A stretch of 45,142 nt of DNA from a virus. Below, one piece after another: positions 1-40,258 of this stretch (its first letter is position 1; every line of letters begins with the position of its first letter). Where the stretch lies: positions 1 to 45,142 of the IMG/VR virus record IMGVR_UViG_3300045988_051781. One strand, written 5' to 3'. Position numbers and translations under genes: made by a program. The notes under the pieces were generated by a model that made no database searches, was not told the origin of the DNA, and saw only the letters and a list, made by a program, of their open reading frames with translations.

Positions 1-99
1 AATCAAGAATCCGTAGTTACCAATATTAGCAAATTTATAGGCTACAGACTGTGAACAGTACAAGAGCGGGTGCACGCCTGTTTTCTGGTATACATAGTC
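1..99. repeat. 99-bp terminal direct repeat (circular-closure overlap), identical to 45044..45142
   Basis: Base-by-base reading shows aatcaagaatccgtagttacc...ggtatacatagtc at both window ends, in the same orientation. Confidence 0.95.
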
Positions 100-426
100 G
101 AGCCACGATTTACACCATGCAAAATCGGAGTTGCCAAACGCCGGGTTATTCTGCCCCTCCCAGTCAAGGCAAAGGATTGCTTCGCCTACACGTTTTCCAA
201 TTCTATCAAGGAAGTAATCTGCTTCTTTCTGGTAATCTCCACCAGTCGCATAATGGTAGATACCGAGACACTTTCCGGCGTTCTTAGCCTGTGCGTAAGC
301 TCTTGTGAAATCCGGGTTCACGTAGCCTGTTCCCTCTGTGGCTTTTACAATCACAAAATCGCATGGTACTACACTGAGGTCAATTCCTGTCTGATAACTT
401 GCAATATCAATTCCGTTTAATGACAT
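1..426 (-). CDS. Endolysin, N-terminal GH25 muramidase part; the gene wraps the window junction and continues at 45142..44279
   Basis: ATG at 426. Translation MSLNGIDIASYQTGIDLSVVPCDFVIVKATEGTGYVNPDF...GIYHYATGG is GH25-like. The frame at base 99 matches the frame at 45142. Not in the ORF track because the window edge cuts it. Confidence 0.85.
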   Translation of the reverse strand, partial: MSLNGIDIASYQTGIDLSVVPCDFVIVKATEGTGYVNPDFTRAYAQAKNAGKCLGIYHYATGGDYQKEADYFLDRIGKRVGEAILCLDWEGQNNPAFGNSDFAWCKSWLDYVYQKTGVHPLLYCSQSVAYKFANIGNYGFLI

Positions 427-430
427 AACA

Positions 431-461
431 TTTCCTTTCTACCGCTAACTTTTGACGGTCA
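431..461 (-). promoter_or_regulatory. Conserved leader stem-loop + SD element, copy a (upstream of endolysin)
   Basis: Plus strand TTTCCTTTCTACCGCTAACTTTTGACGGTCA. Near-identical copies at 10357, 12031 and 15414, each directly 5' of a late-gene start. Confidence 0.55.
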
Positions 462-480
462 AACAAATAGCTTCGTCTGT

Positions 481-7577: not shown

Positions 7578-10352
7578 CTAAACCGTCTCGAACGGATTTC
7601 TTCCGGTCACTATTTTTTGCACTTTAGCTTCTTCTATAACTTCTTTGAACAATGTTCTACGATTGATCTGTGCCGTAAAATTATAGGTTCCACCGTTGCC
7701 GTTTCCACTTTCTTCTCTTACAATCCGGCGAATAAGGCTTTCTGGTGCTTCGATATTATTACCGTTCTTCTGATCTCCGAGGACTGCCATAAACTCTTTA
7801 TTTGGTGGAATAACGGCTCCCTGTGCGAGATATGGGATTCTTGGAGCCGACCAATAACCTACATTAAATCCGATTGAAGAATAACCGGTCAGTTTTTGCA
7901 ACCATCCAGGAATATCTATATTCAAACTGTTAAGCGCGGACGCGATACCATTCTGCATGGTCTGCGCTGCATAAAGCAAAGAGTTTATAAATCCGATAAT
8001 GGCGTTAATTGGTGCTTTTACAATGGCTGCAAAAGTCCCCCAAACACCGGCAAATATTTGCTTTACGCCATCCCATGCCTGTCTCCAATTTCCGGTAAAT
8101 ACGCCTTTTACAAAAGTAATGATTCCGTCAAATACTTTTTTAACATTGTCCACTATGTTTTTTATGTTCTTAAACCAAGCATTTACATACTCTCCAAGAT
8201 ATCCAAACTCTTCCGTCCAATCGTGGTGAAATGCACTTTTCAGCCATGCGCCGAATTTTTCCATAACAGCCTTGACTTCATCCCAATGGGTTACAAGTAA
8301 TACAAGAATTGCTATAGTTGCAGCTATCGCTACTGCAAGCGGTCCACCAAGTGCGGATACAATAGTACCAATCACTCCGATTAAACCGTTAGATCCAATA
8401 ATTGCAATCAACGAACCAACGACACTAATAATCGTTCCAATAGCACCAACAATTGATACAATGAGCGGAACGATTACAGATGCTGCAAATGCGCCAATCA
8501 GTGCCGCACCAATTACATCAATAATCCATTGGTGTTCAGAAATAAAATTAAAGAACGCAGCTACGACAGAAATTAAAGTCGGAATAGCTGATTCTATTAA
8601 CCACGTAAGGAACGGAAGGACTATATTTTTGTATATCCTTAAAACAAAATTTCCGATAGCTTCTATTAGAGGACTGATAGATTCTAATAACTTCCTTATT
8701 GCATCAAGAAGTGGGTAAAAATCTATACTTGCCGCCCATTCAGCAGTCGCCCAAGCTATTTTATTTATAAAATCGAGAACAGACTGAAAAATATCGGCAA
8801 TTGCCTGTATAATCGCCGTTCCGACAGCGTTCTTATTCCATGCTTCGTCCAGCCTTTCTGCTATTCTTCCGACAGTAATCAGAATAGCCTGAACAATCTG
8901 AAGTGAAGTAGTAAGAAGCTGTGTTCCGGTTCCATTCGTCCAGACTTCTAACATGCTCTTGCCGACATCCTTTGCCAGTTTTCCGAGCTCTGTGAAAGCG
9001 TATTTTGCAGCATCAACTGTTTTCTTTCCCTCTTTTTCCCATGCCTGTTTGAATGGCTTGAAAATCTGTGAAAGAATGTCTTTTAGCTTTTCAAGAACCG
9101 GAATGTCAGTGATCTCAACTTCTTCAAACATCGGGCCAGTGCCACCACCACCACCGAATCCGCCACTTCCACCAGACGGCGATTTAGAAGAAGTATCTTC
9201 TGCGGTAAACTTGTTGATATCATCCAACGGCGAAAGATAGTCCTCTGCTGCTTTTGCTGCATCTTCTGTAGCGTCAGCTGCGTCTTTCGCTGCCGATGCC
9301 GTATCTCCTAGACTTGCAGCATAATTTTTTTGCACTGCTATCGCCCTTGTGTATGTACTCTTTCCAGATAGGAAAGAAAAGAACATACTTACATAGCTTG
9401 CCGCGGTAGACAGCATATCTATAAATTTCGTTAAGATAGGTGCTACGACCGTGAGAATAGGGGCGAACGCAGTAGCCAACGCGTTCTGAAGCCTGACAAG
9501 GCTTGACCACAGCATTGAGATACTCTGGTTTGTCGTGCCGGAATACTGCGCAAGGTTGTCAAATCCACTCTTGATTCCGCCGAAGATTGCAGAAAGCGCC
9601 CGGAATGCAACGCTCATCATAAGAGACATAGCAAGCATTCGCCCGAGTCCCATTCTGGCTCTGCCGGATGACCTGGAAACTTTGTCTAATTCTCCCGATG
9701 CTTTCTTTGCAGAAACTTTCGCCCTATTGTTTGCTTTTTCTGCTTTTTTTCCGTACTCTTCTGCTTTACTGGTTATTCCGTCATAAGACGTTTTTAACCG
9801 ATTATTCATATCGGCAAGCTTTTGCTCTGCCTGTGCGAGCTTTTCTATGTCTTTTTTTGCTTCTTTTGTTCCGGTTCCGGTCGCGAAAGCTTTTCCTGTT
9901 TCTTCCAGGTCCTTTAATTCACCTTCTGCGTATTTTATGGTGTTGGCAAGTTCTTCGAGGTCGTAGGTCTGTTTTTTGTAAGTGTTAGAGCTTGTTTTCC
10001 CACCATTTGCAAGGTATCGGTCCCTTGCTTCTGTTAATCGATTTTGCTTCGCTGTGGCTTCTGCAATCTGCGCCTGTATTTCCCTATATTCGTCTGTTGG
10101 AATCTTCTGGCTGCCATATTCTGCAACCTTTTTCCGCAAACTCTCAACTTTCTGTTCCTGTGCGGCATATTCGTTGTTCAGTTTTGCAAAAGCGTCTATC
10201 TGTTTATTCAGTGCTGCTTTTGCGGTTGCTCCGATATTATTTACTTCTCTTGCAAGATTTCTAAGTCTTGCTTCTACTTCCTTACTTCCGGCTTGTATAC
10301 CGTCAGTATCTATTTCTGTGTCGATAACGACAGTACCATCGGCATAAGCCAT
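7578..10352 (-). CDS. Tail tape measure protein (924 aa)
   Basis: Longest tail ORF. Coiled-coil N-terminus, Gly-rich SPSGGSGGFGGGGGTGP, and a long hydrophobic Ile/Ala/Gly-rich stretch. Canonical position after the chaperone genes. Confidence 0.85.
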   Translation of the reverse strand: MAYADGTVVIDTEIDTDGIQAGSKEVEARLRNLAREVNNIGATAKAALNKQIDAFAKLNNEYAAQEQKVESLRKKVAEYGSQKIPTDEYREIQAQIAEATAKQNRLTEARDRYLANGGKTSSNTYKKQTYDLEELANTIKYAEGELKDLEETGKAFATGTGTKEAKKDIEKLAQAEQKLADMNNRLKTSYDGITSKAEEYGKKAEKANNRAKVSAKKASGELDKVSRSSGRARMGLGRMLAMSLMMSVAFRALSAIFGGIKSGFDNLAQYSGTTNQSISMLWSSLVRLQNALATAFAPILTVVAPILTKFIDMLSTAASYVSMFFSFLSGKSTYTRAIAVQKNYAASLGDTASAAKDAADATEDAAKAAEDYLSPLDDINKFTAEDTSSKSPSGGSGGFGGGGGTGPMFEEVEITDIPVLEKLKDILSQIFKPFKQAWEKEGKKTVDAAKYAFTELGKLAKDVGKSMLEVWTNGTGTQLLTTSLQIVQAILITVGRIAERLDEAWNKNAVGTAIIQAIADIFQSVLDFINKIAWATAEWAASIDFYPLLDAIRKLLESISPLIEAIGNFVLRIYKNIVLPFLTWLIESAIPTLISVVAAFFNFISEHQWIIDVIGAALIGAFAASVIVPLIVSIVGAIGTIISVVGSLIAIIGSNGLIGVIGTIVSALGGPLAVAIAATIAILVLLVTHWDEVKAVMEKFGAWLKSAFHHDWTEEFGYLGEYVNAWFKNIKNIVDNVKKVFDGIITFVKGVFTGNWRQAWDGVKQIFAGVWGTFAAIVKAPINAIIGFINSLLYAAQTMQNGIASALNSLNIDIPGWLQKLTGYSSIGFNVGYWSAPRIPYLAQGAVIPPNKEFMAVLGDQKNGNNIEAPESLIRRIVREESGNGNGGTYNFTAQINRRTLFKEVIEEAKVQKIVTGRNPFETV

Positions 10353-10356
10353 AACT

Positions 10357-10410
10357 TTTCCTTTCTACCGCTATTTTTCTGCGGTCAGCGACTATCTCCA
10401 AGTGATAGCC
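10357..10410 (-). promoter_or_regulatory. Conserved two-hairpin leader + SD element, copy b (upstream of tape measure)
   Basis: TTTTCCTTTCTACCGCTATTTTTCTGCGGTCAGCGACTATCTCCAAGTGATAGCC. Shares both hairpins with copy c. Confidence 0.6.
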
Positions 10411-10412
10411 GG

Positions 10413-11006
10413 TTACTTTTTTAACCCGAACAGTTCCCGAAGCTCTTCTTTTTCCTCTTCGCTCCGTTCGATCTGTTTTACCTTTAAATCCACAAGGGAT
10501 TTATTGTTTTTGTAAAATTCCTGTTCCCACTTCTCCAACTTTTTCCCACGCTTCTTTTTATCACGTAAGCCAACCACAGTCGCAAAAGTGCTTTCTCCGA
10601 TTTCCATGAACAACCCGAGAAACGTCCACCAGTGCATATATTTTTCAGCACGGATGTCTTTACCGGCCACTTTATTCACTGCCGGAATTAAGATTGGAGC
10701 ATCCTGATTCCAGTCCATCAATCTCGGCTTTGGTTTGTTGTCGCTAGAAAAACCACAGTCGATAAACTCTATAGCCTGTTCTGCCGCTTCTTTCCAGTGC
10801 TGCGGAGGGATGCTGTCAAAATCCAAGTACAAAATCTGCAACATAGTCATAGACTGTTCAGCGTTCTTTTCCTGTTCGTTCATTCCGGCGTAAATGTCGG
10901 GATCGTTCATTGCGATCAGAATATCCAGAACGGCTCTGTAGTCTGTACGGATTTCGTAGTCTTTCCCTCCGACTCTAAGGGTTGTGGGTAATTTCCAGGT
11001 GTCCAC
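10413..11006 (-). CDS. Gp15-like tail assembly protein
   Basis: 197 aa with a GTG start overlapping the upstream stop (TAGTG). MDTWKLPTTLRVGGKDYEIRTDYRAVLDI resembles the Phage_Gp15 family. Lies just before the tape measure. Confidence 0.6.
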   Translation of the reverse strand: MDTWKLPTTLRVGGKDYEIRTDYRAVLDILIAMNDPDIYAGMNEQEKNAEQSMTMLQILYLDFDSIPPQHWKEAAEQAIEFIDCGFSSDNKPKPRLMDWNQDAPILIPAVNKVAGKDIRAEKYMHWWTFLGLFMEIGESTFATVVGLRDKKKRGKKLEKWEQEFYKNNKSLVDLKVKQIERSEEEKEELRELFGLKK

Positions 11007-11461
11007 TAGTTGTGGTATTTAGCGACATATTTGTTCATTCTCTTTTTTACTTTCTGTGTGCGGACGTTCATTTCACGTTCTATCACAGTAGCGATAGAGG
11101 AAAGAACGTTTTCTACAAAAAGCTCTCCTGATTCCAGAACAGTGAAAGCTCCGAGGATTCCGAAGAACGATTCTTTTGCATCTGCATCAACAAGATAGCT
11201 GATCTTCTCCACAATATCATTTTCAGCTTTGCGGATATTTTCGACATCCTTTTCCGAATCTCCTGTTTTTTCCGGCATTTGGTAACTTTCGTAGAACTTT
11301 GCTACCTCTTCGTATCGGTCGATAATATTGGTGTCAGATGGTCGGAAAGTGAATTTCCCGAGCATCTGACCGCGCTTGTTCTTGATGTTGTATGTCTTTG
11401 CACCATCATCAATGATGATATTGTTTCCCTGTACATTGCTTTTTACCAATTTGTTGCTCAT
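11006..11461 (-). CDS. Tail assembly chaperone-like protein
   Basis: 151 aa between the major tail protein and the Gp15-like gene. Assigned by position. Confidence 0.5.
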   Translation of the reverse strand: MSNKLVKSNVQGNNIIIDDGAKTYNIKNKRGQMLGKFTFRPSDTNIIDRYEEVAKFYESYQMPEKTGDSEKDVENIRKAENDIVEKISYLVDADAKESFFGILGAFTVLESGELFVENVLSSIATVIEREMNVRTQKVKKRMNKYVAKYHN

Positions 11462-11486
11462 TTAGACCTCCTTGTTTTCTTGCTGA

Positions 11487-12026
11487 TTACGAAAGTGCGC
11501 GCTCGCCTTCTAATGACTGCGTAGCGATTTCACCGGCAGTAAATACCGGATTTCCAGATTTGAGAGATTCTGCCGTAACGCTTCCCTCTGTTCTTGTTCC
11601 ATTTTCTGTGACATCAAACGGGAAATTTACACCAGATGTATCACCACCGTAAGACTGCGGTTTTACAAGCACTTCCTGAACAAATGCTCTGTGCTTTGTA
11701 GCTGACGTATCTTCCACGATAACTTCAAGCATGAGTGTTTTACATTCATCACCTTTCAAACGTTTCAGTGCGATATCTCTAATTTTTGGATATAATTTAG
11801 AGGATGTATCTGCATAGAACGGATCAGCAGACATAGACGGTTCATAGCCGTTGTCTGTAACTTTTGTTTTTCCGAGAATTGTTTTCTTCGTTTCAGTGTC
11901 TGGATTCAGTTCTACAGACATATCCTCGATATCTTCACCAAGAATTTCCCATGTTGCTGTTTCAGCAGCCAGTTTGAAACTGTAATCTAAGAAGTGAGCC
12001 ATAGCTTCACGATTTAATTTAGCCAT
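11487..12026 (-). CDS. Major tail protein
   Basis: 179 aa, first gene of the tail block after the connector genes, preceded by the conserved leader element. Confidence 0.65.
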   Translation of the reverse strand: MAKLNREAMAHFLDYSFKLAAETATWEILGEDIEDMSVELNPDTETKKTILGKTKVTDNGYEPSMSADPFYADTSSKLYPKIRDIALKRLKGDECKTLMLEVIVEDTSATKHRAFVQEVLVKPQSYGGDTSGVNFPFDVTENGTRTEGSVTAESLKSGNPVFTAGEIATQSLEGERALS

Positions 12027-12030
12027 GTTT

Positions 12031-12084
12031 ATTCCTTTCTACCGCTAACTTTTCGCGGTCAGTGACTATCTCCAAACGATAGCC
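12031..12084 (-). promoter_or_regulatory. Conserved two-hairpin leader + SD element, copy c (upstream of major tail protein)
   Basis: ATTCCTTTCTACCGCTAACTTTTCGCGGTCAGTGACTATCTCCAAACGATAGCC. Stems ACCGC/GCGGT and GGCTATC/GATAGTC. Confidence 0.6.
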
Positions 12085-12086
12085 AG

Positions 12087-12599
12087 TTAATTGGTTCTTT
12101 TAAACTTATTTCTGTACTTTAGTGACAGGCTTATAACCCAGTCTTGTACATTGTTTTCGCTTACATTATCCAGATATGACGGCGTAAGACGTTTGATTTC
12201 TTCAATCTTTCTGCCCTCTGTAAGCTCTGGATATTCTTCGAGGGTGTAAGTCTTTCCGTCAATCGTAACAGGCTGTTTTTCTAGCCATTTTCCAAGTCCG
12301 TCAAGGAACTCTTTAATGTCTGCTTTTACATTTCCGGCATCTATCGCCGTGCGATACAGAATGTAAAAAGGATAGTTGCAGAGCTGGTCTACTGTGCCAG
12401 TTACATATTTCTTTTCCAGTACGATCACTGCCCCACTCACCGGATAGCATGTGATACCGGAATCCTTTTCTACTGTGGAGAATTTTATTTTTTCATCCGG
12501 CAAGAGTCCGGGATAGCTATTGAGAAGATCCATAATTGCAGAAGTTACAACCTTATAGCCATCAACATCGTATTTAACTTTACTTTTTTCCTCCGGCAA
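12087..12599 (-). CDS. Head-tail joining / minor capsid family protein
   Basis: 170 aa, third of three connector ORFs between the capsid and tail genes (Sfi11-like minor-capsid arrangement). Confidence 0.5.
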   Translation of the reverse strand: MPEEKSKVKYDVDGYKVVTSAIMDLLNSYPGLLPDEKIKFSTVEKDSGITCYPVSGAVIVLEKKYVTGTVDQLCNYPFYILYRTAIDAGNVKADIKEFLDGLGKWLEKQPVTIDGKTYTLEEYPELTEGRKIEEIKRLTPSYLDNVSENNVQDWVISLSLKYRNKFKRTN

Positions 12600-14233: not shown

Positions 14234-15409
14234 CTAACCTCTGGTCTTAATTCTGGCAATCGGAATTGCCTTGATTGGGAAATACTTTTCTGCGCCGGAT
14301 TTGTTGTTCTGTGCAAGCTGCCAGTTTGATCCTTTTTCAAGTTCTTCGTCTGTCGGGGAAATGATACTTCCGTCTTTAAACGAAATTCCCACCGGAGACC
14401 AGCACTTTCTCTGGCGAGAGTACAGTGTTGTTTCTCCACCGTTCTTTTCCGGGTTTCTGTCCATTTCATAAGGTACTTTAGCACCGCAATCTGTATATTC
14501 GATAGCACCAGCACCGAATACGTAAGTTGTATAGACATCACCAGCCGGAAGAAGAACAACGTAGTCTCCAGCTTTTGCTCCGGCAACATCTGTAGAAACA
14601 TCTGCTTTGTTAACCTGTCCTTTTGTAGCTCCTGTGTCAACGACTTCCAGTGCGTCTTTATCAGTCTGTTTAGCCTTTACGTACTTCGCTTTCGCTGTCT
14701 CTGTAGGCATATTGTCGTCCACAAGGACAGTTCTACCATTCAGAGTGCCGAGCGTAAGATCTCTTTCAATTCCCTGTGCATCTGTATACTTCATGTATGC
14801 GATGAGTTTCAGATTTTCGAGGTCTGTAGCGATCTTGGAATGCATAATCGCAAGACTGAATTTTGCTTTATTATCGCCAAGTGCTTTCTGAATTGCGTTG
14901 TTCAGAGTGGTTTCCTTGAATCCGTATTCTGTGGCGTTGTCCGATACATCGTAAGTATGTTTTGTGACAAAATCCACGTTTCCGGCTCCTGTCATGGAGA
15001 AAATACCTTTCAGAATTGCGAGGATCGTCTTCTGGTCTACATCATCCCAATACTCTGCGATTTCCTGTGCTGCCGGTAAGAAGTCTTCGCCTGTAATGTC
15101 GGAAGAAAAGTCTTTTTCTGTCCATCCGTTCGCACGTCCGACTACGATTCTGCTCTGTGTATAAGTTTCTCTTGATTCTGCGGTAATGTTTGTGTTACCG
15201 TCATAGTTGTTTGCTGTTCCGCCGATTCTAGCCTTAATCGGGATGGTCAGATAGTTTCCACCTGTCTGATCCGGCAGAAGCGAAGCATACTGCGGTTTTT
15301 CCACAATAGCACCTGACTTTAACAGTTCATTTCTGTTAAGGTTCTCGGTCTGATCTACATACGCACCAAAAACCTCGCCATTAAAATTTTTCTGGTCAAA
15401 TAATGCCAT
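14234..15409 (-). CDS. Major capsid protein
   Basis: 391 aa following the scaffold gene. The N-terminus MALFDQKNFNGEVFGAYVDQ is typical of this capsid family. Conserved leader upstream. Confidence 0.8.
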   Translation of the reverse strand: MALFDQKNFNGEVFGAYVDQTENLNRNELLKSGAIVEKPQYASLLPDQTGGNYLTIPIKARIGGTANNYDGNTNITAESRETYTQSRIVVGRANGWTEKDFSSDITGEDFLPAAQEIAEYWDDVDQKTILAILKGIFSMTGAGNVDFVTKHTYDVSDNATEYGFKETTLNNAIQKALGDNKAKFSLAIMHSKIATDLENLKLIAYMKYTDAQGIERDLTLGTLNGRTVLVDDNMPTETAKAKYVKAKQTDKDALEVVDTGATKGQVNKADVSTDVAGAKAGDYVVLLPAGDVYTTYVFGAGAIEYTDCGAKVPYEMDRNPEKNGGETTLYSRQRKCWSPVGISFKDGSIISPTDEELEKGSNWQLAQNNKSGAEKYFPIKAIPIARIKTRG

Positions 15410-15413
15410 GTTG

Positions 15414-15444
15414 TTTCCTTTCTACCCGTAACTTTTCCGGGTTA
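15414..15444 (-). promoter_or_regulatory. Conserved leader stem-loop + SD element, copy d (upstream of major capsid protein)
   Basis: TTTCCTTTCTACCCGTAACTTTTCCGGGTTA. The stem ACCCG/CGGGT differs from ACCGC/GCGGT by a compensatory double change. Confidence 0.6.
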
Positions 15445-15452
15445 AAAAATAT

Positions 15453-16070
15453 CTACTCATTTTTGCCCTGAATGTAAGAAGAAATATCAAGGTTTGGATT
15501 TTCGTTTTTCATTCGCATAAGCTCTGTCATAGATACATGACCGCCTGTTCCTGCTCCAGCTCCGGTTTTTGGAGTTGTGAATCTGGCAGCCCCAGCTTTC
15601 GCTTTATCTGCATTTTCATCAACGAACGCTGATGCGTCTGATTCTTTCATCTGTGCGATCAGATCATTCAGTCCGAGAATCTTTCCATCATGCAATTTAA
15701 GACCGGCTGCTTTTACATCGTTCATGATCTGCTTCTTTGCAGCTTCACTAGAGAATTTAATAGTTTCAAATTCCTTGCCAAGAGCATCCGCAAAATCACG
15801 TTCGTAAAGCTTTTCCTTGTAATCTTTTTCAGCGTCTTCAGCTTTCTTCTGCCATTCTTTCAGGTCTTTCTGAATCTGTTCTGGATCGATTCCGTCAAAG
15901 CCTTTCAACGTTTCTTCCGCTGTCTCTGCTTTGGATTTCCAATTGTCCCGGTCGGCCGTTAATGTTTCGTTGTCTTTCTGCAACTTCTTAACGTCTTTCC
16001 CGTACTCTTTCATGACGTACTGGATCTGTTCATCAGTCAAACCCTGTTCTTTTAAGTCTTCTGTTTTCAT
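15453..16070 (-). CDS. Scaffolding protein (GP20-like)
   Basis: 205 aa, highly charged and helical (KEQGLTDEQIQYVMKEYGKDVKKLQ), directly upstream of the capsid gene. Confidence 0.75.
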   Translation of the reverse strand: MKTEDLKEQGLTDEQIQYVMKEYGKDVKKLQKDNETLTADRDNWKSKAETAEETLKGFDGIDPEQIQKDLKEWQKKAEDAEKDYKEKLYERDFADALGKEFETIKFSSEAAKKQIMNDVKAAGLKLHDGKILGLNDLIAQMKESDASAFVDENADKAKAGAARFTTPKTGAGAGTGGHVSMTELMRMKNENPNLDISSYIQGKNE

Positions 16071-16160
16071 TCAAAAGCTCCTTCCATTATTAGGTTATTT
16101 ATAGGTGCGTAACCAGTCACCAATGGTTTTCCGTTTTGTAGGACTCGGCTGTCCAAAAAA

Positions 16161-16228
16161 AAGAATAGGCGGAGTCGAACCGCCATTCTCCCGGATGTCC
16201 GGGTGCTTTACCGTTAAGCTATATTCTT
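16161..16228 (-). tRNA. tRNA-like element with canonical acceptor, D and T arms but only a 4-nt anticodon loop (possible pseudo-tRNA or decoy)
   Basis: Minus strand AAGAATA-TA-GCTT-AACGGTA-AAGC-A-CCCGG-ACAT-CCGGG-AGAAT-GGCGG-TTCGACT-CCGCC-TATTCTT, then a T-run. Folded by hand only. Confidence 0.5.
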
Positions 16229-16470
16229 CGCCATTTTCTTTTCTCGTAGGGGGAGGTTCAAAAAGAAAAATAGCAATCATACCAATATCACATTGAGAGG
16301 AAATGGCGTTATCAAATAACGCCAAAACTCGCCGGAACGTGCGACCGTTCCTTGATACAGTTTTCCACTAGCGAGTCTCTTAAAGAAATGAGGTGCAATG
16401 AAGAAAAAATCTTTTCCCGATTCCCTATTTTATTTTATTGCATTTTTGTACTTAAAGTAGTACTCACATT

Positions 16471-17502: not shown

Positions 17503-17931
17503 CTAGGCAAGCTTTTTGATGATGATATTTGCATCTTTCACAAGAACTGAAGTCGCACTGATGTTTCCGACAGATACGGTAAAGCTACTTCCAGACGGTA
17601 CCGCAATCAGTGTTGATGCTTTCACGTTCTGGTATACTTCTGCGGTTGCAACTGTATAATCCATTTCGGTTCCTCCGATTGCTTCGCCGTTCAACTCTAT
17701 CGTAAGTGCTGTCGCTCCGGCGGCTGCCGCTGAAACATTGGCGTTAAATTCTACTTCTACCGCCATTGGAAGATTTCCGCGGTTGGTTACTTCAAAAAGT
17801 CCACTACCGTCATCATGATTGAGCCATCCACTAGTGCAAGCGCAGCGGCGGCTTTTTACTCTTGTGTTCGTAAATATAACATTCTGATTTACCGCGACTG
17901 TCTGTGCGGCTTTTGCAATTACATTTAACAT
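17503..17931 (-). CDS. BclA C-terminal / C1q-TNF-like jelly-roll domain protein
   Basis: 142 aa, beta-rich. TIELNGEAIGGT and the C-terminus VLVKDANIIIKKLA resemble the remembered BclA C-terminal domain (TIQVNGVPVPGT ... SASIIIEKVA). AGGAG RBS. Confidence 0.55.
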   Translation of the reverse strand: MLNVIAKAAQTVAVNQNVIFTNTRVKSRRCACTSGWLNHDDGSGLFEVTNRGNLPMAVEVEFNANVSAAAAGATALTIELNGEAIGGTEMDYTVATAEVYQNVKASTLIAVPSGSSFTVSVGNISATSVLVKDANIIIKKLA

Positions 17932-18195: not shown

Positions 18196-18864
18196 TTACA
18201 TCACATTCCCACTTGCACAGCAACCATTACCAAATGCGTTATACGCAAAGTACGGACTGCAAGAAATATAAGCCGGTTTTGGTGTCGGTCTCACTGCATC
18301 AATAATGTTATTGGTCTGTGATACCTGTGAGATCTGCCAATATGCTGTCTGCAAATCTCTGTCACGATCAGCGAGTTTGTCTCTCAAGTTCTGAATCGTG
18401 TTATCCTGGATTAACTGGCGTGTAGCCTGTCCATCTGCTAAGATGCTTTCTTTTATATCACAGCAGCATTGTGCCAGCTGTGCCTGCATACTCTGCGCCT
18501 GTAATGACGCATCATATCTACTCTGTAAGATCTCTTTCTGTGTGTTACAGCAACACTGCGCCTGCTGAGCCTGTAAGTTCTGCAATCCGAGCTGTGTGGT
18601 ATAGCGGTTCTCTAACACGTCTCTCTGTGTCTCGCAAGCTGTGTTAGACACGTTCTGGTTTGTGTTAAAGATATCTCTTTTCACGAATTCGTCAGAGACA
18701 AAAGCGTTCTGTGCTCCGTTGTTGTTTCCCCATCCGTTACCGCAAAACAGGAAAGCAAGAATGATGATCCAGAACCATCCTCCATCGCCCCACATTCCAT
18801 TGTCGTTGTTCCTTGTTACTGCTGCTACATCGGCAGCACTTAACGTACTCATACCATCGTTCAT
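18196..18864 (-). CDS. Membrane-anchored protein with three coiled-coil repeats, two of them headed by CCC triplets
   Basis: AGGAG RBS. N-terminal GDGGWFWIIILAFLFCGNGWG hydrophobic segment. Repeats ACETQRDVLENRY.., CCCNTQKEILQSRYD.., CCCDIKESILADGQ... C-terminal GNGCCASGNVM. Confidence 0.6.
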   Translation of the reverse strand: MNDGMSTLSAADVAAVTRNNDNGMWGDGGWFWIIILAFLFCGNGWGNNNGAQNAFVSDEFVKRDIFNTNQNVSNTACETQRDVLENRYTTQLGLQNLQAQQAQCCCNTQKEILQSRYDASLQAQSMQAQLAQCCCDIKESILADGQATRQLIQDNTIQNLRDKLADRDRDLQTAYWQISQVSQTNNIIDAVRPTPKPAYISCSPYFAYNAFGNGCCASGNVM

Positions 18865-19690: not shown

Positions 19691-19906
19691 TCAGCACACT
19701 TTTATGATCTTTGTATTTATTCGTCTGCTTATTCTCTTTACAGTGGATAAGCTCACGTTCATCTTTTCTGCGCACAATTCCAGAGGTACGTCCATGCTCC
19801 GCAGATCAAAGAGTTCCATTTCTGTGGGCGTGAAATTACATTCTTTTCTTAGGTATTCGATTTCTTTACGTGTAAAAGAACATATTTTCATGATACCATA
19901 AATCAC
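19691..19906 (-). CDS. Small sigma-70 region-4 / GerE-LuxR-like HTH protein (about 66-71 aa)
   Basis: TPTEMELFDLRSMDVPLELCAEKMNVSLSTVKRISRRINTKI fits the region-4/LuxR HTH pattern. Start ambiguous (GTG 19906 or ATG 19891). Confidence 0.55.
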   Translation of the reverse strand: MIYGIMKICSFTRKEIEYLRKECNFTPTEMELFDLRSMDVPLELCAEKMNVSLSTVKRISRRINTKIIKVC

Positions 19907-25928: not shown

Positions 25929-26564
25929 TTACCTCTTTTTCCTTTCTGTCAGTTCTTCTCCGAACGACTTAATCTTTACAATGTTCCCTGCACATTCTTC
26001 AGGAACCTGTCCGTAAAACAGCACTGTCTCAGGTTCCAATCTTTTCATCATCTCATTATATCCGTCCATGAACAGTGCTTTCCGCTCCTTGCTGTTCATT
26101 ACTCCAACACTGGATACCGCTACTACACTTCCTACCGGCTCACCGTCAAAACACCAATCAAACGATTCTCTGTCGCTCCAACTGATTGTAGGTATCACAT
26201 CTATACCGTACATCTGCATATAAGCACCTAACCAATGCTTGCGAAAATGGTTGTAAATCTGCAAAGCTTTCGGGAAATCCGTGTAAGTGCTAAAATCTGG
26301 CGACATGACACAATCAAATTTGCTCAACACTGGAATGTATTTATCTGGATGCGTCCACAGTCTTAGAAATTGGTAATCATCCAGAAAGAAGTGTATCCCT
26401 TTGCCCTCCGGCTTCTTGCAAGTATTTGCATAGTTAAAACCTATAAATTTACACTTTTCGTATGATGTAGGTTCTATCTTTGGTATGTCATACTGACCAA
26501 CGCCATCAAAAATATACTTCTGTTGGTTTTCGTAGTTCTTCATTTCGCGGTACAAAAAATACAC
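25929..26564 (-). CDS. DUF4417-like protein
   Basis: GIHFFLDDYQF..LW..P..Y...L..F..V.SPDFS and GIDVIPTISWSD resemble DUF4417 from memory. Start uncertain (GTG 26564, TTG 26555 or ATG 26543). Confidence 0.55.
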   Translation of the reverse strand: MYFLYREMKNYENQQKYIFDGVGQYDIPKIEPTSYEKCKFIGFNYANTCKKPEGKGIHFFLDDYQFLRLWTHPDKYIPVLSKFDCVMSPDFSTYTDFPKALQIYNHFRKHWLGAYMQMYGIDVIPTISWSDRESFDWCFDGEPVGSVVAVSSVGVMNSKERKALFMDGYNEMMKRLEPETVLFYGQVPEECAGNIVKIKSFGEELTERKKR

Positions 26565-26985: not shown

Positions 26986-28332
26986 TTAGAGCAAATTAAA
27001 ATAGATGTCTATATTTCCGTCAGTAATCACAATCTTGTCTATGCATTCTTTCAGAATTTTGTTTTGTTCTTTTACATCTAATTTATCCCATACATCCGAA
27101 ATCTTTTTTATTTTTTCAATTCTCTCCGGAGTGTTCAAAGATTTTTTCCGCGTTTCCCTGTCTAGCTCTCTTCTAAGTTCTTTTACACGTTTTTCCGACT
27201 TTCCGATCACTTCCAATAGCGTTTCACTTTCACTTGTGGCATATAATTCATAGAGCTTTTTAAGCTTGTCTACCGTGCTTTTCATTTCTTTTTCAATAAG
27301 CTCTTTTTTACTAAGTTGCTTTTCACGTCTTCCTGTTATATTCACAGCAAATCGCTTAAAACAATCCGACACTTCTTTTTCCACGTCCTTTGCGTCCGGT
27401 CTTTTGTTGTCGCAATTTGGGTTTTTTACCATGTATTCTTTGTACCCATCCCTAGAATAACACTCTAATACATGTCTATTCGCCCATTTTTTATATCGCA
27501 TTCGTGCGCCACATTTTCCACAAAAGCACAATCCAGAAAGCAGAAATTTGTTGCAGATATAAGAATTATTCGCTCTTTTTTCCATAAATTTCTGTGTTTT
27601 GTAAAATGTTTCTTCGTCTATGATTGCTTCATGTTTCCCCTTGTAAATGTTTCCTTTGTATTCTATGTATCCTATATTCGACTTTCTTTTTAATATCTGA
27701 ATAACAATTCTTTCTCCTTTCATTCCGAGCATTTCCGATATTTTCTGGCATGAATATCCATCGTTATACAGCCGATACATAGTCCGAACCTTTTCTGCTT
27801 CTTCTTCTTTTGGATGTAATATCCCGTCATTTCTGTCATAGTAATAGCCGAACGGGACACGCCCTCCGCCCATCCACAAGCCACTTTTAACACGCTCAAG
27901 CATCCCGGCTTTTGTTCGCATGGATATAATCTCGCGCTCGTACTGTCCCATAAGCGCATCAATGCCGATTTTCATTTTGTCCATTGGCGTATCCAGACTT
28001 AATTCTTCGGTAGCTGATACAATCTTAACATTGTATTCTGGCAATGTTCGATACAGAATAACAAGCGTATCAATGGTATCACGGCTCACTCTGTCGAGTT
28101 TATAGATATATACCTTTTCGATATATCCATTCTTAGAATCCTCTAATAACCGTTGTATATCCGGTCGGTCGAGCGTGCTGCCAGAATAACCGCCATCTAT
28201 ATACCACTTGTCTATCTTGTCTCCCTCTTTTTCTGCCCTTTCTATGATCTTGTTTTTTTGCAGATCCAGTCCATATTTTTCCGTCTGGTTCTCGGTCGAT
28301 ACCCTAAGATAACCTACATTCATTTTCTTCAT
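26986..28332 (-). CDS. int: Large serine recombinase (integrase type)
   Basis: 448 aa from ATG 28332 (AGGAAG RBS). N-terminal resolvase domain VGYLRVSTENQ...LDRVSRD, recombinase domain, zinc ribbon CFCGKCGARM, C-terminal coiled coil. Confidence 0.9.
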   Translation of the reverse strand: MKKMNVGYLRVSTENQTEKYGLDLQKNKIIERAEKEGDKIDKWYIDGGYSGSTLDRPDIQRLLEDSKNGYIEKVYIYKLDRVSRDTIDTLVILYRTLPEYNVKIVSATEELSLDTPMDKMKIGIDALMGQYEREIISMRTKAGMLERVKSGLWMGGGRVPFGYYYDRNDGILHPKEEEAEKVRTMYRLYNDGYSCQKISEMLGMKGERIVIQILKRKSNIGYIEYKGNIYKGKHEAIIDEETFYKTQKFMEKRANNSYICNKFLLSGLCFCGKCGARMRYKKWANRHVLECYSRDGYKEYMVKNPNCDNKRPDAKDVEKEVSDCFKRFAVNITGRREKQLSKKELIEKEMKSTVDKLKKLYELYATSESETLLEVIGKSEKRVKELRRELDRETRKKSLNTPERIEKIKKISDVWDKLDVKEQNKILKECIDKIVITDGNIDIYFNLL

Positions 28333-28357
28333 GTCAACTCTTCCTTTCCATTTAAAA

Positions 28358-28390
28358 AGAATTGACCGAGATTCTATCAAGGTCAATTCT
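28358..28390. promoter_or_regulatory. Perfect 10-bp palindrome AGAATTGACC-N13-GGTCAATTCT upstream of int (operator or attP candidate)
   Basis: Arms at 28358..28367 and 28381..28390. The left arm plus spacer recurs inverted at 26916..26936. Confidence 0.6.
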
Positions 28391-40170: not shown

Positions 40171-40258
40171 CTTTTCTCCTTTGTAATTTTTTTGTTGTTG
40201 CCAAACCACTTCCTTTCTGTGGTATACTCCTTGTATCAATATCAAGGAGGTGTGTTCT

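Follow-up and report, generated by a model that had tools for sequence, protein, structure and literature searches.

The 45,142-nt sequence that was analyzed in full, and is called the window here, is the IMG/VR virus record IMGVR_UViG_3300045988_051781, a siphovirus-like temperate phage genome with a G+C content of 40.6%. Its minus-strand genes, identified via PHROGs, follow the order terS-terL-portal-minor head, then scaffold-capsid, then tail tube-chaperones-tape measure and finally holin-endolysin. Four of them, those for the major capsid protein, a putative major tail (tube) protein, the tape measure protein and a GH25-type endolysin, are directly preceded by copies of one element (Table 1), which, when complete, consists of two adjoining hairpins followed by a Shine-Dalgarno (SD) sequence and the start codon. 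This element is a selected RNA structure in the late mRNA and is locked onto the ribosome-binding site (RBS) of particular genes. No near-identical relative of the window was found among deposited phages; the closest isolate is Roseburia phage Jekyll, whose capsid protein is 58.6% identical.

The four copies and their common fold

The four minus-strand copies had been noticed in a sequence-only reading of the window, and all of them were recovered, with boundaries shifted by only 1-2 nt. Each ends in AGAAAGGAA-N5-AUG, preceded by the hairpin-2 core ACCNN-loop9-NNGGU. The sequence GGTAGAAAGGAA occurs exactly four times in the window, compared with 0.29 expected occurrences, and 0 of 100 shuffles reached this count; for the 28-mer core, 0.00 matches are expected. 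Thus, chance does not explain the four copies. When the window was searched with a covariance model (R1, described below) with the filters off, the copies obtained the scores listed in Table 1, and the next best match reached 14.6 bits. The absence of the element from the other late genes, which the same reading had asserted, therefore holds. The 14.6-bit match stems from a hairpin, CUCCUUG-N9-CAAGGAG, which resembles an anti-SD/SD pair and has AGAAAGGAA after it; hairpin 2 is missing there, and a relationship to the motif is improbable.

Copies b and c share the upstream hairpin, hairpin 1, as had been proposed, although it really comprises 8 bp (C/U-GGCUAUC ... GAUAGUC-G/A). Its closing pair is C-G in copy b and U-A in copy c, which is a further compensatory change besides the double swap from ACCGC/GCGGU to ACCCG/CGGGU that had been reported for the capsid copy and is indeed present in the sequence. 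In copy a, the RNA-sense sequence reads ACCGU-CAAAAGUUA-GCGGU-AGAAAGGAA-AUGUU-AUG, and CGCUG and hairpin 2 are retained at the endolysin gene in the relatives L052, L022, and L043. Copy d lies 8 nt past the stop codon of the scaffold gene (15455-15453).

Table 1. Copies of the element, the genes behind them and other features of the window.
Feature	Positions	Strand	Score or assignment	Layout or remarks
Copy c, full element, before major tail (tail tube) gene	12024..12089	-	75.0 bits; both hairpins in minimum free energy (MFE) fold, z = -1.9	upstream stop UAA 12089-12087; hairpin 1 12085-12063 (8 bp, 7-nt loop); C-U-(G) 12062-12060; hairpin 2 12059-12041 (ACCGC/GCGGU, loop GAAAAGUUA); AGAAAGGAA 12040-12032; spacer UAAAC; AUG 12026-12024
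Copy b, full element, before tape measure gene	10350..10415	-	75.9 bits; MFE fold z = -2.5	upstream stop UAA 10415-10413; hairpin 1 10411-10389; CUG 10388-10386; hairpin 2 10385-10367 (loop AGAAAAAUA); AGAAAGGAA 10366-10358; AUG 10352-10350
Copy a, before GH25 endolysin gene	424..480	-	37.9 bits	hairpin 1 degenerate, only a 4-bp AUAG/CUAU remnant; linker UUG 462-460; hairpin 2 459-441 (ACCGU/GCGGU, one U·G pair); AGAAAGGAA 440-432; AUG 426-424
Copy d, hairpin 2 only, before major capsid gene	15407..15445	-	27.7 bits; hairpin-1 portion of this alignment spurious	UUA 15445-15443; ACCCG 15442-15438; loop GAAAAGUUA; CGGGU 15428-15424; AGAAAGGAA 15423-15415; AUG 15409-15407
Major tail (tube) protein, putative, 179 aa, behind copy c	11487..12026	-	phrog_3099, E = 1.5e-41	between tail-completion and chaperone genes
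Tape measure protein, 924 aa, behind copy b	7578..10352	-	phrog_1535, E = 9.9e-122	
Major capsid (major head) protein, 391 aa, behind copy d	14234..15409	-	phrog_247, E = 8.7e-79	
GH25-type endolysin, behind copy a	1..426	-	phrog_291, E = 1.1e-39	extends past the end of the window
Scaffold (GP20-like) gene	15453-16070	-		
GP20-b RNA motif (RF03003)	16091-16154	-	40.2 bits (gathering score 36.2)	directly 5' of scaffold gene
tRNA-like gene	16159-16229	-	57 bits against the Rfam tRNA model	
Terminator-like hairpin	16304-16324			further upstream of GP20-b
phrog_20016 homologue	17503-17931			
phrog_16490 homologue	18196-18864	-		no motif
71-aa protein gene	19691-19906	-	weak sigma-70 region 4/helix-turn-helix (HTH) match	within head-gene cluster
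DUF4417 nuclease-like gene	25929-26564	-		
Large serine recombinase gene	26986-28386	-	Resolvase, Recombinase, and Zn-ribbon domains	
Hairpin CUCCUUG-N9-CAAGGAG	40210-40257	-	14.6 bits	followed by AGAAAGGAA

Loci with the motif came from pattern scans of IMG/VR, from relatives of the tail-tube protein, and from one genome scan and one metagenome scan, and model R1 was derived from a seed alignment (A1) of 33 sequences. Loose pattern scans of viral and genome collections gave many chance matches of high G+C content, which were filtered out by the covariance model. The regular expression used for the seed demanded pairing of the two inner pairs of hairpin 2, whereas hairpin 1 was not selected for pairing. 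Hairpin 1 was 96.9% paired in the seed, with double changes in seven of its eight pairs. A larger alignment (A2) of 110 distinct matches was fitted to the model and contains many related rows; the pair-type counts and the result for hairpin 1 are independent of these choices. In this alignment, 97.1% of the cells were paired, as compared with 26-45% in controls with slid partners, and neither the observed pairing nor the covariation score was attained in any of 500 shuffles. Double changes were found again in seven of the eight pairs of hairpin 1 and in two of the five pairs of hairpin 2, with four to six pair types per variable pair. In hairpin 2, these are the two inner pairs (GC, UA, CG, UG, AU), while the outer three (A-U, C-G, C-G) are invariant. 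G·U and U·G pairs occupied 122 cells and A·C and C·A only 16, and 72 of the 110 sequences have G·U as the third pair of hairpin 1. This excess indicates that the fold belongs to the gene-sense RNA and not to duplex DNA or the antisense strand. At the tail-tube copy, L119, L121, and L122 differ in hairpin 1 from the window, L120, and L155 although their tail-tube proteins are 95-97% identical; the two sets of arms, GGCUAUC/GAUAGUC and GGAUACC/GGUAUUC, are related by two compensatory pair changes, and the G·U pair is kept.

Folding with ViennaRNA extended hairpin 2 by a C-G and a U-A pair across a bulged G to a 7-bp hairpin, and the counts at these positions, i.e., C54-G97 (CG 86, UG 18) and U56-A96 (UA 98, UG 4), are compatible with pairing. 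With this extension, the two hairpins abut without a linker. The 5' flank, which is A/U-rich (almost purely so in alignment columns 1-6) and then reads AC, and the 3' flank, AAAGGA, both exit at the hairpin junction. Hairpin 1 has 8 bp and a loop of 4-12 nt; its sequence is free distally and conserved only in the three pairs proximal to the junction (C-G, G-C, G·U). The consensus of hairpin 2 is C-U-(bulged G)-ACCNN / NNGGU-A-G with the loop N-A-A-W-A-R-U-U-A, and its 3' strand runs directly into the SD sequence AGAAAGGA. Thus described, the element has its conserved core at the hairpin junction, at the bulged purine, in the 3' half of loop 2 (A-R-U-U-A) and in the AGAAAGGA SD. Additional pairings inspected in the alignment, i.e., of GUUA in loop 2 with an upstream UAAC, loop-loop kissing and C8 with G57, showed no covariation. 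The UGA in the CUGACC linker was also considered as a conserved stop codon and rejected, since its frame shifts with the length of the hairpin-1 loop.

The approximately 20 near-invariant nucleotides clustered at the helix junction raise the question of whether the element might be a small ribozyme of a new type, which would cleave the polycistronic late transcript by itself. Small ribozymes of other kinds are common in prophages of Firmicutes, and the element does lie between genes in phage operons and can occur in tandem copies. However, it lacks a multi-helix junction, covariation supports no pseudoknot in it, it matched no ribozyme family in Rfam even at E <= 10, and its tight linkage to the SD and the AUG is atypical of ribozymes. 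Self-cleavage is, of all the explanations considered, the most improbable.

Genes, mobile elements, and hosts that carry the motif

The check that had been suggested with the sequence-only reading, an Infernal model and a search for covariation in relatives, turned up matches in many related as well as unrelated phages, with extensive compensatory covariation. Model R1 has more than 200 matches across IMG/VR contigs, gut metagenomes, and Lachnospiraceae genomes. All matches in genomes are in Clostridia, and nearly all of these in Lachnospiraceae, with hosts including Acetatifactor, Bilifractor, Blautia, Butyrivibrio, Dorea, Lachnoclostridium, and Clostridium sp. CAG:510. In Bilifractor porci Oil+RF-744-WCA-WT-13 (L316), copies stand in front of the capsid and tail genes. 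With the motif as the query, blastn matched only uncultured human-gut "Bacteriophage sp." records. Neither of two isolated phages, Roseburia phage Jekyll and Blautia phage Montmirail, has the motif, and their corresponding junctions measure only 0-19 nt. Similarly, the junctions that lack the motif in the relatives L123-L164 are only 0-16 nt long. Relatives with tail-tube proteins of 63-80% identity have no element before the tail-tube gene; a subset of them (~30 loci, L124-L127 and L132-L157) carries it before the capsid gene, the tape measure gene, and the gene following the latter. Given the short gaps in relatives without the motif, the element looks like an add-on cassette that has been gained or lost at individual junctions.

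Every match faces its gene, and an open reading frame (ORF) was found behind 106 of 111 distinct matches. The start codon, which is AUG in 100 of these 106 genes, lies 5-8 nt 3' of the motif in 79 of them, and the second residue is Ala in 62 (58%), compared with 2 of the 61 other genes of the window (3%). The SD of the genes with the motif is AGAAAGGA(A), whereas most other genes in the window have an SD of the AAGGAGG type. In approximately 12 of 110 variants, there is no SD after hairpin 2, and the 3' arm (GAGG or AAGG) within this hairpin is the only one. The genes served are diverse. The capsid genes belong to at least three non-homologous PHROG families (phrog_247, 544, and 29) and two unassigned types, and the tail-tube genes to two families, phrog_3099 and phrog_158; tape measures, a large tail protein encoded after the tape measure gene, GH25 endolysins, and phrog_16490 are served as well. 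The link with cistrons for abundant proteins, which had been suggested from the window alone, is therefore too narrow, as tape measure and endolysin genes also have copies. The phrog_16490 genes are among the commonest behind the motif (L001, L018, L032, L040, L073, L085, L097, L173, L385, and many metagenome loci) and encode proteins with an N terminus MALTDE..., a Gly-rich stretch, one transmembrane helix, a long coiled coil, and a Cys-rich C terminus. The window's own copy of this gene lacks the motif; a phrog_20016 homologue, present in the window as well, lies close to phrog_16490 in several loci.

The strict linkage to the start codon might reflect a direct effect on the ribosome, in which hairpin 2 would present the SD and stack coaxially on the SD:anti-SD helix, or the double hairpin would act as a standby platform, and more 30S subunits would be recruited without any other factor. 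The SD never shifts relative to the 3' end of hairpin 2 (GGU immediately followed by AGAAAGGA) and differs from the type used by most other genes of the window; furthermore, the spacing to the AUG is optimal, an AUG with a GCN second codon predominates, and such a mechanism would work in any mobile element of the same host family. In Firmicutes, the 3' end of 16S rRNA reads 3'-UCUUUCCU; the complementarity to it is established for Bacillus subtilis and inferred for Lachnospiraceae. As AGAAAGGA would pair with its extreme end, the rRNA terminus would abut the hairpin. On the other hand, the first two nucleotides of the SD are probably paired in the extended helix, some variants have no SD downstream of hairpin 2, and the upstream members of tandem arrays (see below) have no ORF. 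Moreover, the conserved loop sequence and hairpin 1 would be left unexplained. We consider direct enhancement of ribosome binding an unlikely function.

The element starts at most 15 nt past the upstream stop codon in 63 of 113 cases, and a terminator-like hairpin with a U tract ends at most 20 nt upstream of it in 19 of 113 cases (17%), compared with 1.4% of random positions, i.e., a 12-fold enrichment. Many tail-tube and tape measure copies, e.g., in L214, L250, L227, L345, L368, L196, L326, L367, and L233, follow a GC-rich hairpin with a U tract that ends 2-12 nt before the motif. Tandem arrays were found before the tail-tube gene in L378:1186-1382 (three copies), L216:5640-5769, and L367:2327-2478 (two each). 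Only the last copy of such an array adjoins an SD and an AUG, and the upstream copies have no ORF. A terminator-like hairpin parts the two copies in L367, and the copies in L378 are likewise interleaved with such hairpins. The motif itself was rejected as an intrinsic terminator: the sequences behind hairpins 1 and 2, CUGACC and AGAAAGG, are not U tracts, and a terminator scan listed no site at any copy.

The proximity of terminators might be taken to mean that the element acts on transcription, with the nascent RNA or the GGUAG of the non-template strand loading a processive antitermination factor, put/nut-like or like a NusG paralogue, for passage through a late operon punctuated by terminators. 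The interleaved tandem arrays fit this idea, and the two-hairpin layout is loosely reminiscent of HK022 put and GGUAG of the ops core. However, an element located downstream of the adjacent terminator cannot rescue that terminator. Furthermore, the element is locked to the start codon and present in several copies per genome, and a partial scan of ~45 ORFs of the window revealed no NusG/KOW or N/Q-like protein. Antitermination is thus given little credence here. A lambda nut or HK022 put site was rejected as well: such sites are promoter-proximal, precede the terminators that they override and number one or two per genome, whereas the window has four copies, all of them 5-8 nt away from a start codon, and adjacent terminators lie upstream of the motif instead of downstream.

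Even less probable, in our estimate, is a signal at the DNA level. It could be a late promoter read by a special sigma factor or a conserved sequence at module boundaries through which phages recombine. The order of terminator and motif does mimic a terminator-promoter junction, and, as is usual for module-boundary sequences, the same 60 nt are found in front of genes that are not homologous. However, neither would account for the compensatory covariation and the strong G·U asymmetry; the variable loop of hairpin 1 is unlike the fixed spacing of promoters, and a transcription start 3' of GGTAGA would delete a perfectly placed SD. A sigma-70 promoter was rejected, as the spacing between TTGACC and TAGAAA is only 14-16 nt, where 16-18 nt is required, and no sigma-70-like site overlaps any copy. 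These observations bear out the earlier preference for a functional RNA structure over a simple promoter. Recombination is perhaps a side effect; it leaves the selection on pairing unexplained.

The motif is not specific for phages. In Butyrivibrio, it is located before the gene for Maff2 (PF12750), a protein of 70-75 aa with weak similarity to pilins of type IV secretion systems. Copies at this gene were found at L394:7377-7438 (Butyrivibrio sp. AE3009) and L321:3964-4027 (Butyrivibrio sp. INlla14) as well as in L423 and L435. In L394, the Maff2 gene is situated right behind a gene for a VirD4/TraG-type (type IV) coupling protein, which identifies the carrier as a conjugative element and not a phage. 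Among ~240 pattern matches in genomes and metagenomes, none was located before a host housekeeping gene; the matches occur only in phage or conjugative-element contexts. Since all of them face the downstream gene at a fixed distance and are confined to these contexts, a repeat of the miniature inverted-repeat transposable element (MITE) or repetitive extragenic palindromic (REP) type was rejected.

Relation to known RNA elements and regulatory sites

The element is a structured, presumably cis-acting leader of phage morphogenesis genes that is new or at most unnamed, and it is not in Rfam. A search of the whole window against Rfam 15 at the gathering threshold returned only a tRNA and GP20-b, both away from the copies of the motif. 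With E-values up to 10, the region 10300-12200 gave four chance matches to eukaryotic families of long non-coding and small nucleolar RNAs, none at the motif on its strand. The families that remained unmatched include preQ1-I, guanidine-II/mini-ykkC, hammerhead, twister, pistol, hatchet, and GP20-a/b. In the literature searched, no specific account of such a motif in front of tail, capsid, or Maff2 genes was found. The catalog of Fremin et al. (2023) lists 10,006 candidate structured RNAs (csRNAs) from IMG/VR data, among which is a 64-nt, highly expressed csRNA of Blautia/Ruminococcus phages (PMC10690425); the motif may be identical to the latter.

A close analog in position is the GP20 group of motifs (GP20-a, RF02991; GP20-b, RF03003), which are likewise short, structured, and located directly upstream of a phage morphogenesis gene, but the consensus and the fold of our motif differ from those of GP20-b. 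GP20-b itself lies before the scaffold gene, so that the late region of the window contains two distinct candidates for cis-regulatory RNAs. The tRNA-like gene is also in the morphogenesis region, immediately 5' of GP20-b and the scaffold gene. Its anticodon arm, CCCGG-ACAU-CCGGG, has a loop of 4 nt, and ARAGORN assigns no anticodon to it; it may be a processing signal for RNase P/Z instead of a decoding tRNA. Flanked by the terminase genes and the early region, the serine recombinase and DUF4417 genes suggest, together with a block of plus-strand genes at 41.4-44.2 kb, a temperate lifestyle.

Start-associated sequences (SAS) of Cluster K mycobacteriophages are repeated, oriented, SD-containing sequences located a few nt from the ATG of a subset of genes, with a suspected role in translation, and mark non-structural genes; the inverted repeats of the extended form (ESAS) do not support RNA pairing and have been regarded as DNA sites (PMC3203893). 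Our element resembles them as an oriented, SD-containing repeat near start codons, sometimes with an inverted repeat upstream (PMC3203893). In contrast to ESAS, however, the pairs covary here, and the genes are structural or lysis genes. The 13-bp SAS consensus GGGATAGGAGCCC, which is located 3-7 bp from the start codon, had two matches in the window at three mismatches, compared with 4.35 expected, neither of them at a copy of the motif.

A further class of candidates is formed by the RNA operators to which proteins bind, such as those of the MS2 and PP7 coat proteins, T4 RegA, Mu Com, and the leaders bound by CsrA. The operators of MS2 and PP7 are hairpins with a bulged purine that overlap the RBS, and hairpin 2 likewise combines a bulged purine with a conserved loop and overlaps or adjoins the RBS. 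A sequence-specific RNA-binding protein, encoded by the host or by the element, could bind the junction, the bulged purine, and loop 2 and switch translation of the downstream gene for timing or dosage. Conservation centers on these very positions, including the 3' half of loop 2, and leaves distal hairpin 1 free, and the SD adjoins hairpin 2, partly pairs with it or, in ~11% of cases, lies inside it. Moreover, several lineages with the motif, but not Jekyll and Montmirail, which lack it, encode a 71-aa protein resembling region 4 of sigma-70 with an HTH. However, this protein was not detected in the motif-bearing L251 and L233, for which 8-10 kb of upstream sequence was covered, or in the Maff2 loci, whereas L558-L560 encode it without having the motif. 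No common candidate protein was found for the unrelated phages and conjugative elements that the motif serves, and with no match before a host housekeeping gene, a host regulon is not evident either. Such an operator is possible but rather unlikely. The 71-aa protein, whose homologues are 48-99% identical, may be a late regulator. As the phage-encoded partner of the motif, to which a comparison of the window and L516 with Jekyll and Montmirail had pointed, it was rejected because of its mismatched distribution; it is a weak lead and most likely a lineage marker. A bipartite site of the CsrA type was also rejected: the SD contains GGA, but this triplet occurs in the hairpin-1 loop of only 33 of the 110 sequences (30%) and in none of the hairpin-2 loops.

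RNase III sites of the T7 type have stems of ~20 bp or longer, in many cases with an internal loop, compared with 8 and 7 bp here, and coaxial stacking of the two hairpins would give ~15 bp. Several other likenesses, of GGUAG to the ops core, of CGCUGAC to P22 boxB, of loop 2 to the sequence complementary to the T7 epsilon enhancer, and of the linker with the 5' arm to the 16S anti-SD region, are too short to be tested and were treated as coincidence.

A candidate host-dependent leader

The sequence-only reading had offered three functions, a 5' stabilizer, an RNase processing site, and a translational enhancer or regulator-binding site, all of which are possible. Our tentative preference is for a host-dependent, cis-acting leader that would create or protect a 5' end and couple it to a strong SD, giving rise to a stable, well-translated, and uncoupled message. 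The element would act in cis on the RNA and rely on the machinery of the host and not on a phage protein; its use in both phages and conjugative elements argues for this. In such a scenario, the double-hairpin block would direct an RNase Y-type endonuclease of the host to cut in the A/U-rich flank, or, alternatively, a transcript would start there. The hairpins, together with a ribosome bound at the neighboring strong SD, would then cap the new 5' end and thereby block 5'-to-3' decay by RNase J, resulting in a long-lived, heavily translated message. Where either is present, the upstream hairpin or a preceding terminator could protect the 3' end of the upstream fragment. Thereby, the downstream cistron would be uncoupled from its neighbors and its output raised. 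The sequence comparison establishes the RNA structure, its conservation, its fixed position on the SD and the start codon, and its gene associations; cleavage, stabilization, and the involvement of host factors are inferred.

There are precedents for such a mechanism. In the sae operon (saePQRS) of Staphylococcus aureus, RNase Y cuts in an intergenic region, guided by a double-stranded element downstream, and the downstream fragment is stabilized (PMC5449607). In Clostridium perfringens, processing by RNase Y between pilC2 and pilA2 has been proposed to stabilize pilin mRNA (as cited in PMC6958937). These systems share with our element an intergenic position in an operon, an A/U-rich single strand with a structured element on its 3' side, and possibly a leaky terminator ahead (PMC5449607; PMC6958937), as well as a downstream cistron, pilin-type polymer subunits included, that needs more output than its neighbors. 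An RNase Y site or a 5' stabilizer would be recognized by a mapped, processed 5' end beside the structure and a downstream fragment that is more stable than the upstream one; of its features, the structural prerequisites, i.e., the A/U-rich flank, the downstream duplex, and the intercistronic site, are present here.

Stabilizers at 5' ends form a second group of precedents. In the leaders of Firmicutes (the aprE leader with its stem-loop and RBS, ermC, the polypurine sequence of phage SP82, and STAB-SD of cryIIIA) and in that of T7 gene 10, a hairpin near the 5' end and a strong SD-like purine tract precede very highly expressed genes. The combination of a hairpin with a strong, SD-like purine tract is the same in our element. 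However, those stabilizers are leaders of single genes without a shared consensus, whereas our element follows a single consensus in front of many genes that are unrelated to one another and in different mobile elements.

Several observations weigh against the host-dependent leader. Its main weakness is that a generic stabilizer would need neither the near-invariant A67, U70, and A71 of the loop nor the bulged purine and the ACC/GGU pairs, which point to sequence-specific recognition. The guide of RNase Y in sae, furthermore, is a duplex of 24 bp whose sequence is unimportant, in contrast to the two short, abutting hairpins with a conserved junction and loop, fused to an SD, that are found here; either of these is shorter than the sae duplex, and hairpin 2 alone is thermodynamically weak. 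The variants whose sole SD sits within hairpin 2 do not fit easily either, and tape measure and endolysin are not especially abundant proteins. The tandem copies without an ORF in L378, L216, and L367 are neutral in this respect.

The invariant positions could be accommodated if the junction, bulge, and loop were the docking site of a dedicated factor, such as an RNA-binding protein, a specificity factor of a nuclease, or a ribosome feature peculiar to Lachnospiraceae. In that case, which appears doubtful but conceivable, unrelated phages and conjugative elements would share a "structural-subunit regulon" under post-transcriptional control, which would be defined by the element and comprise capsid, tail tube, tape measure, and conjugative pilin. 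A variant of this proposal, in which the RNA cleaves itself, is less likely.

With its sharply conserved junction and loop, the motif offers a defined bait for an interacting nuclease, protein, or ribosomal feature, and it could be a ready-made expression leader for the engineering of poorly tractable commensals. In annotation, it flags major structural genes without recognizable homology in metagenomic contigs and predicts a Lachnospiraceae host. Lachnospiraceae are a dominant family in the gut, and the control of gene expression in their phages is almost unstudied. One portable RNA cassette before non-homologous capsid, tail-tube, tape measure, lysin, and conjugative-pilin genes would represent a common route to high or uncoupled expression in the mobile elements of this family.

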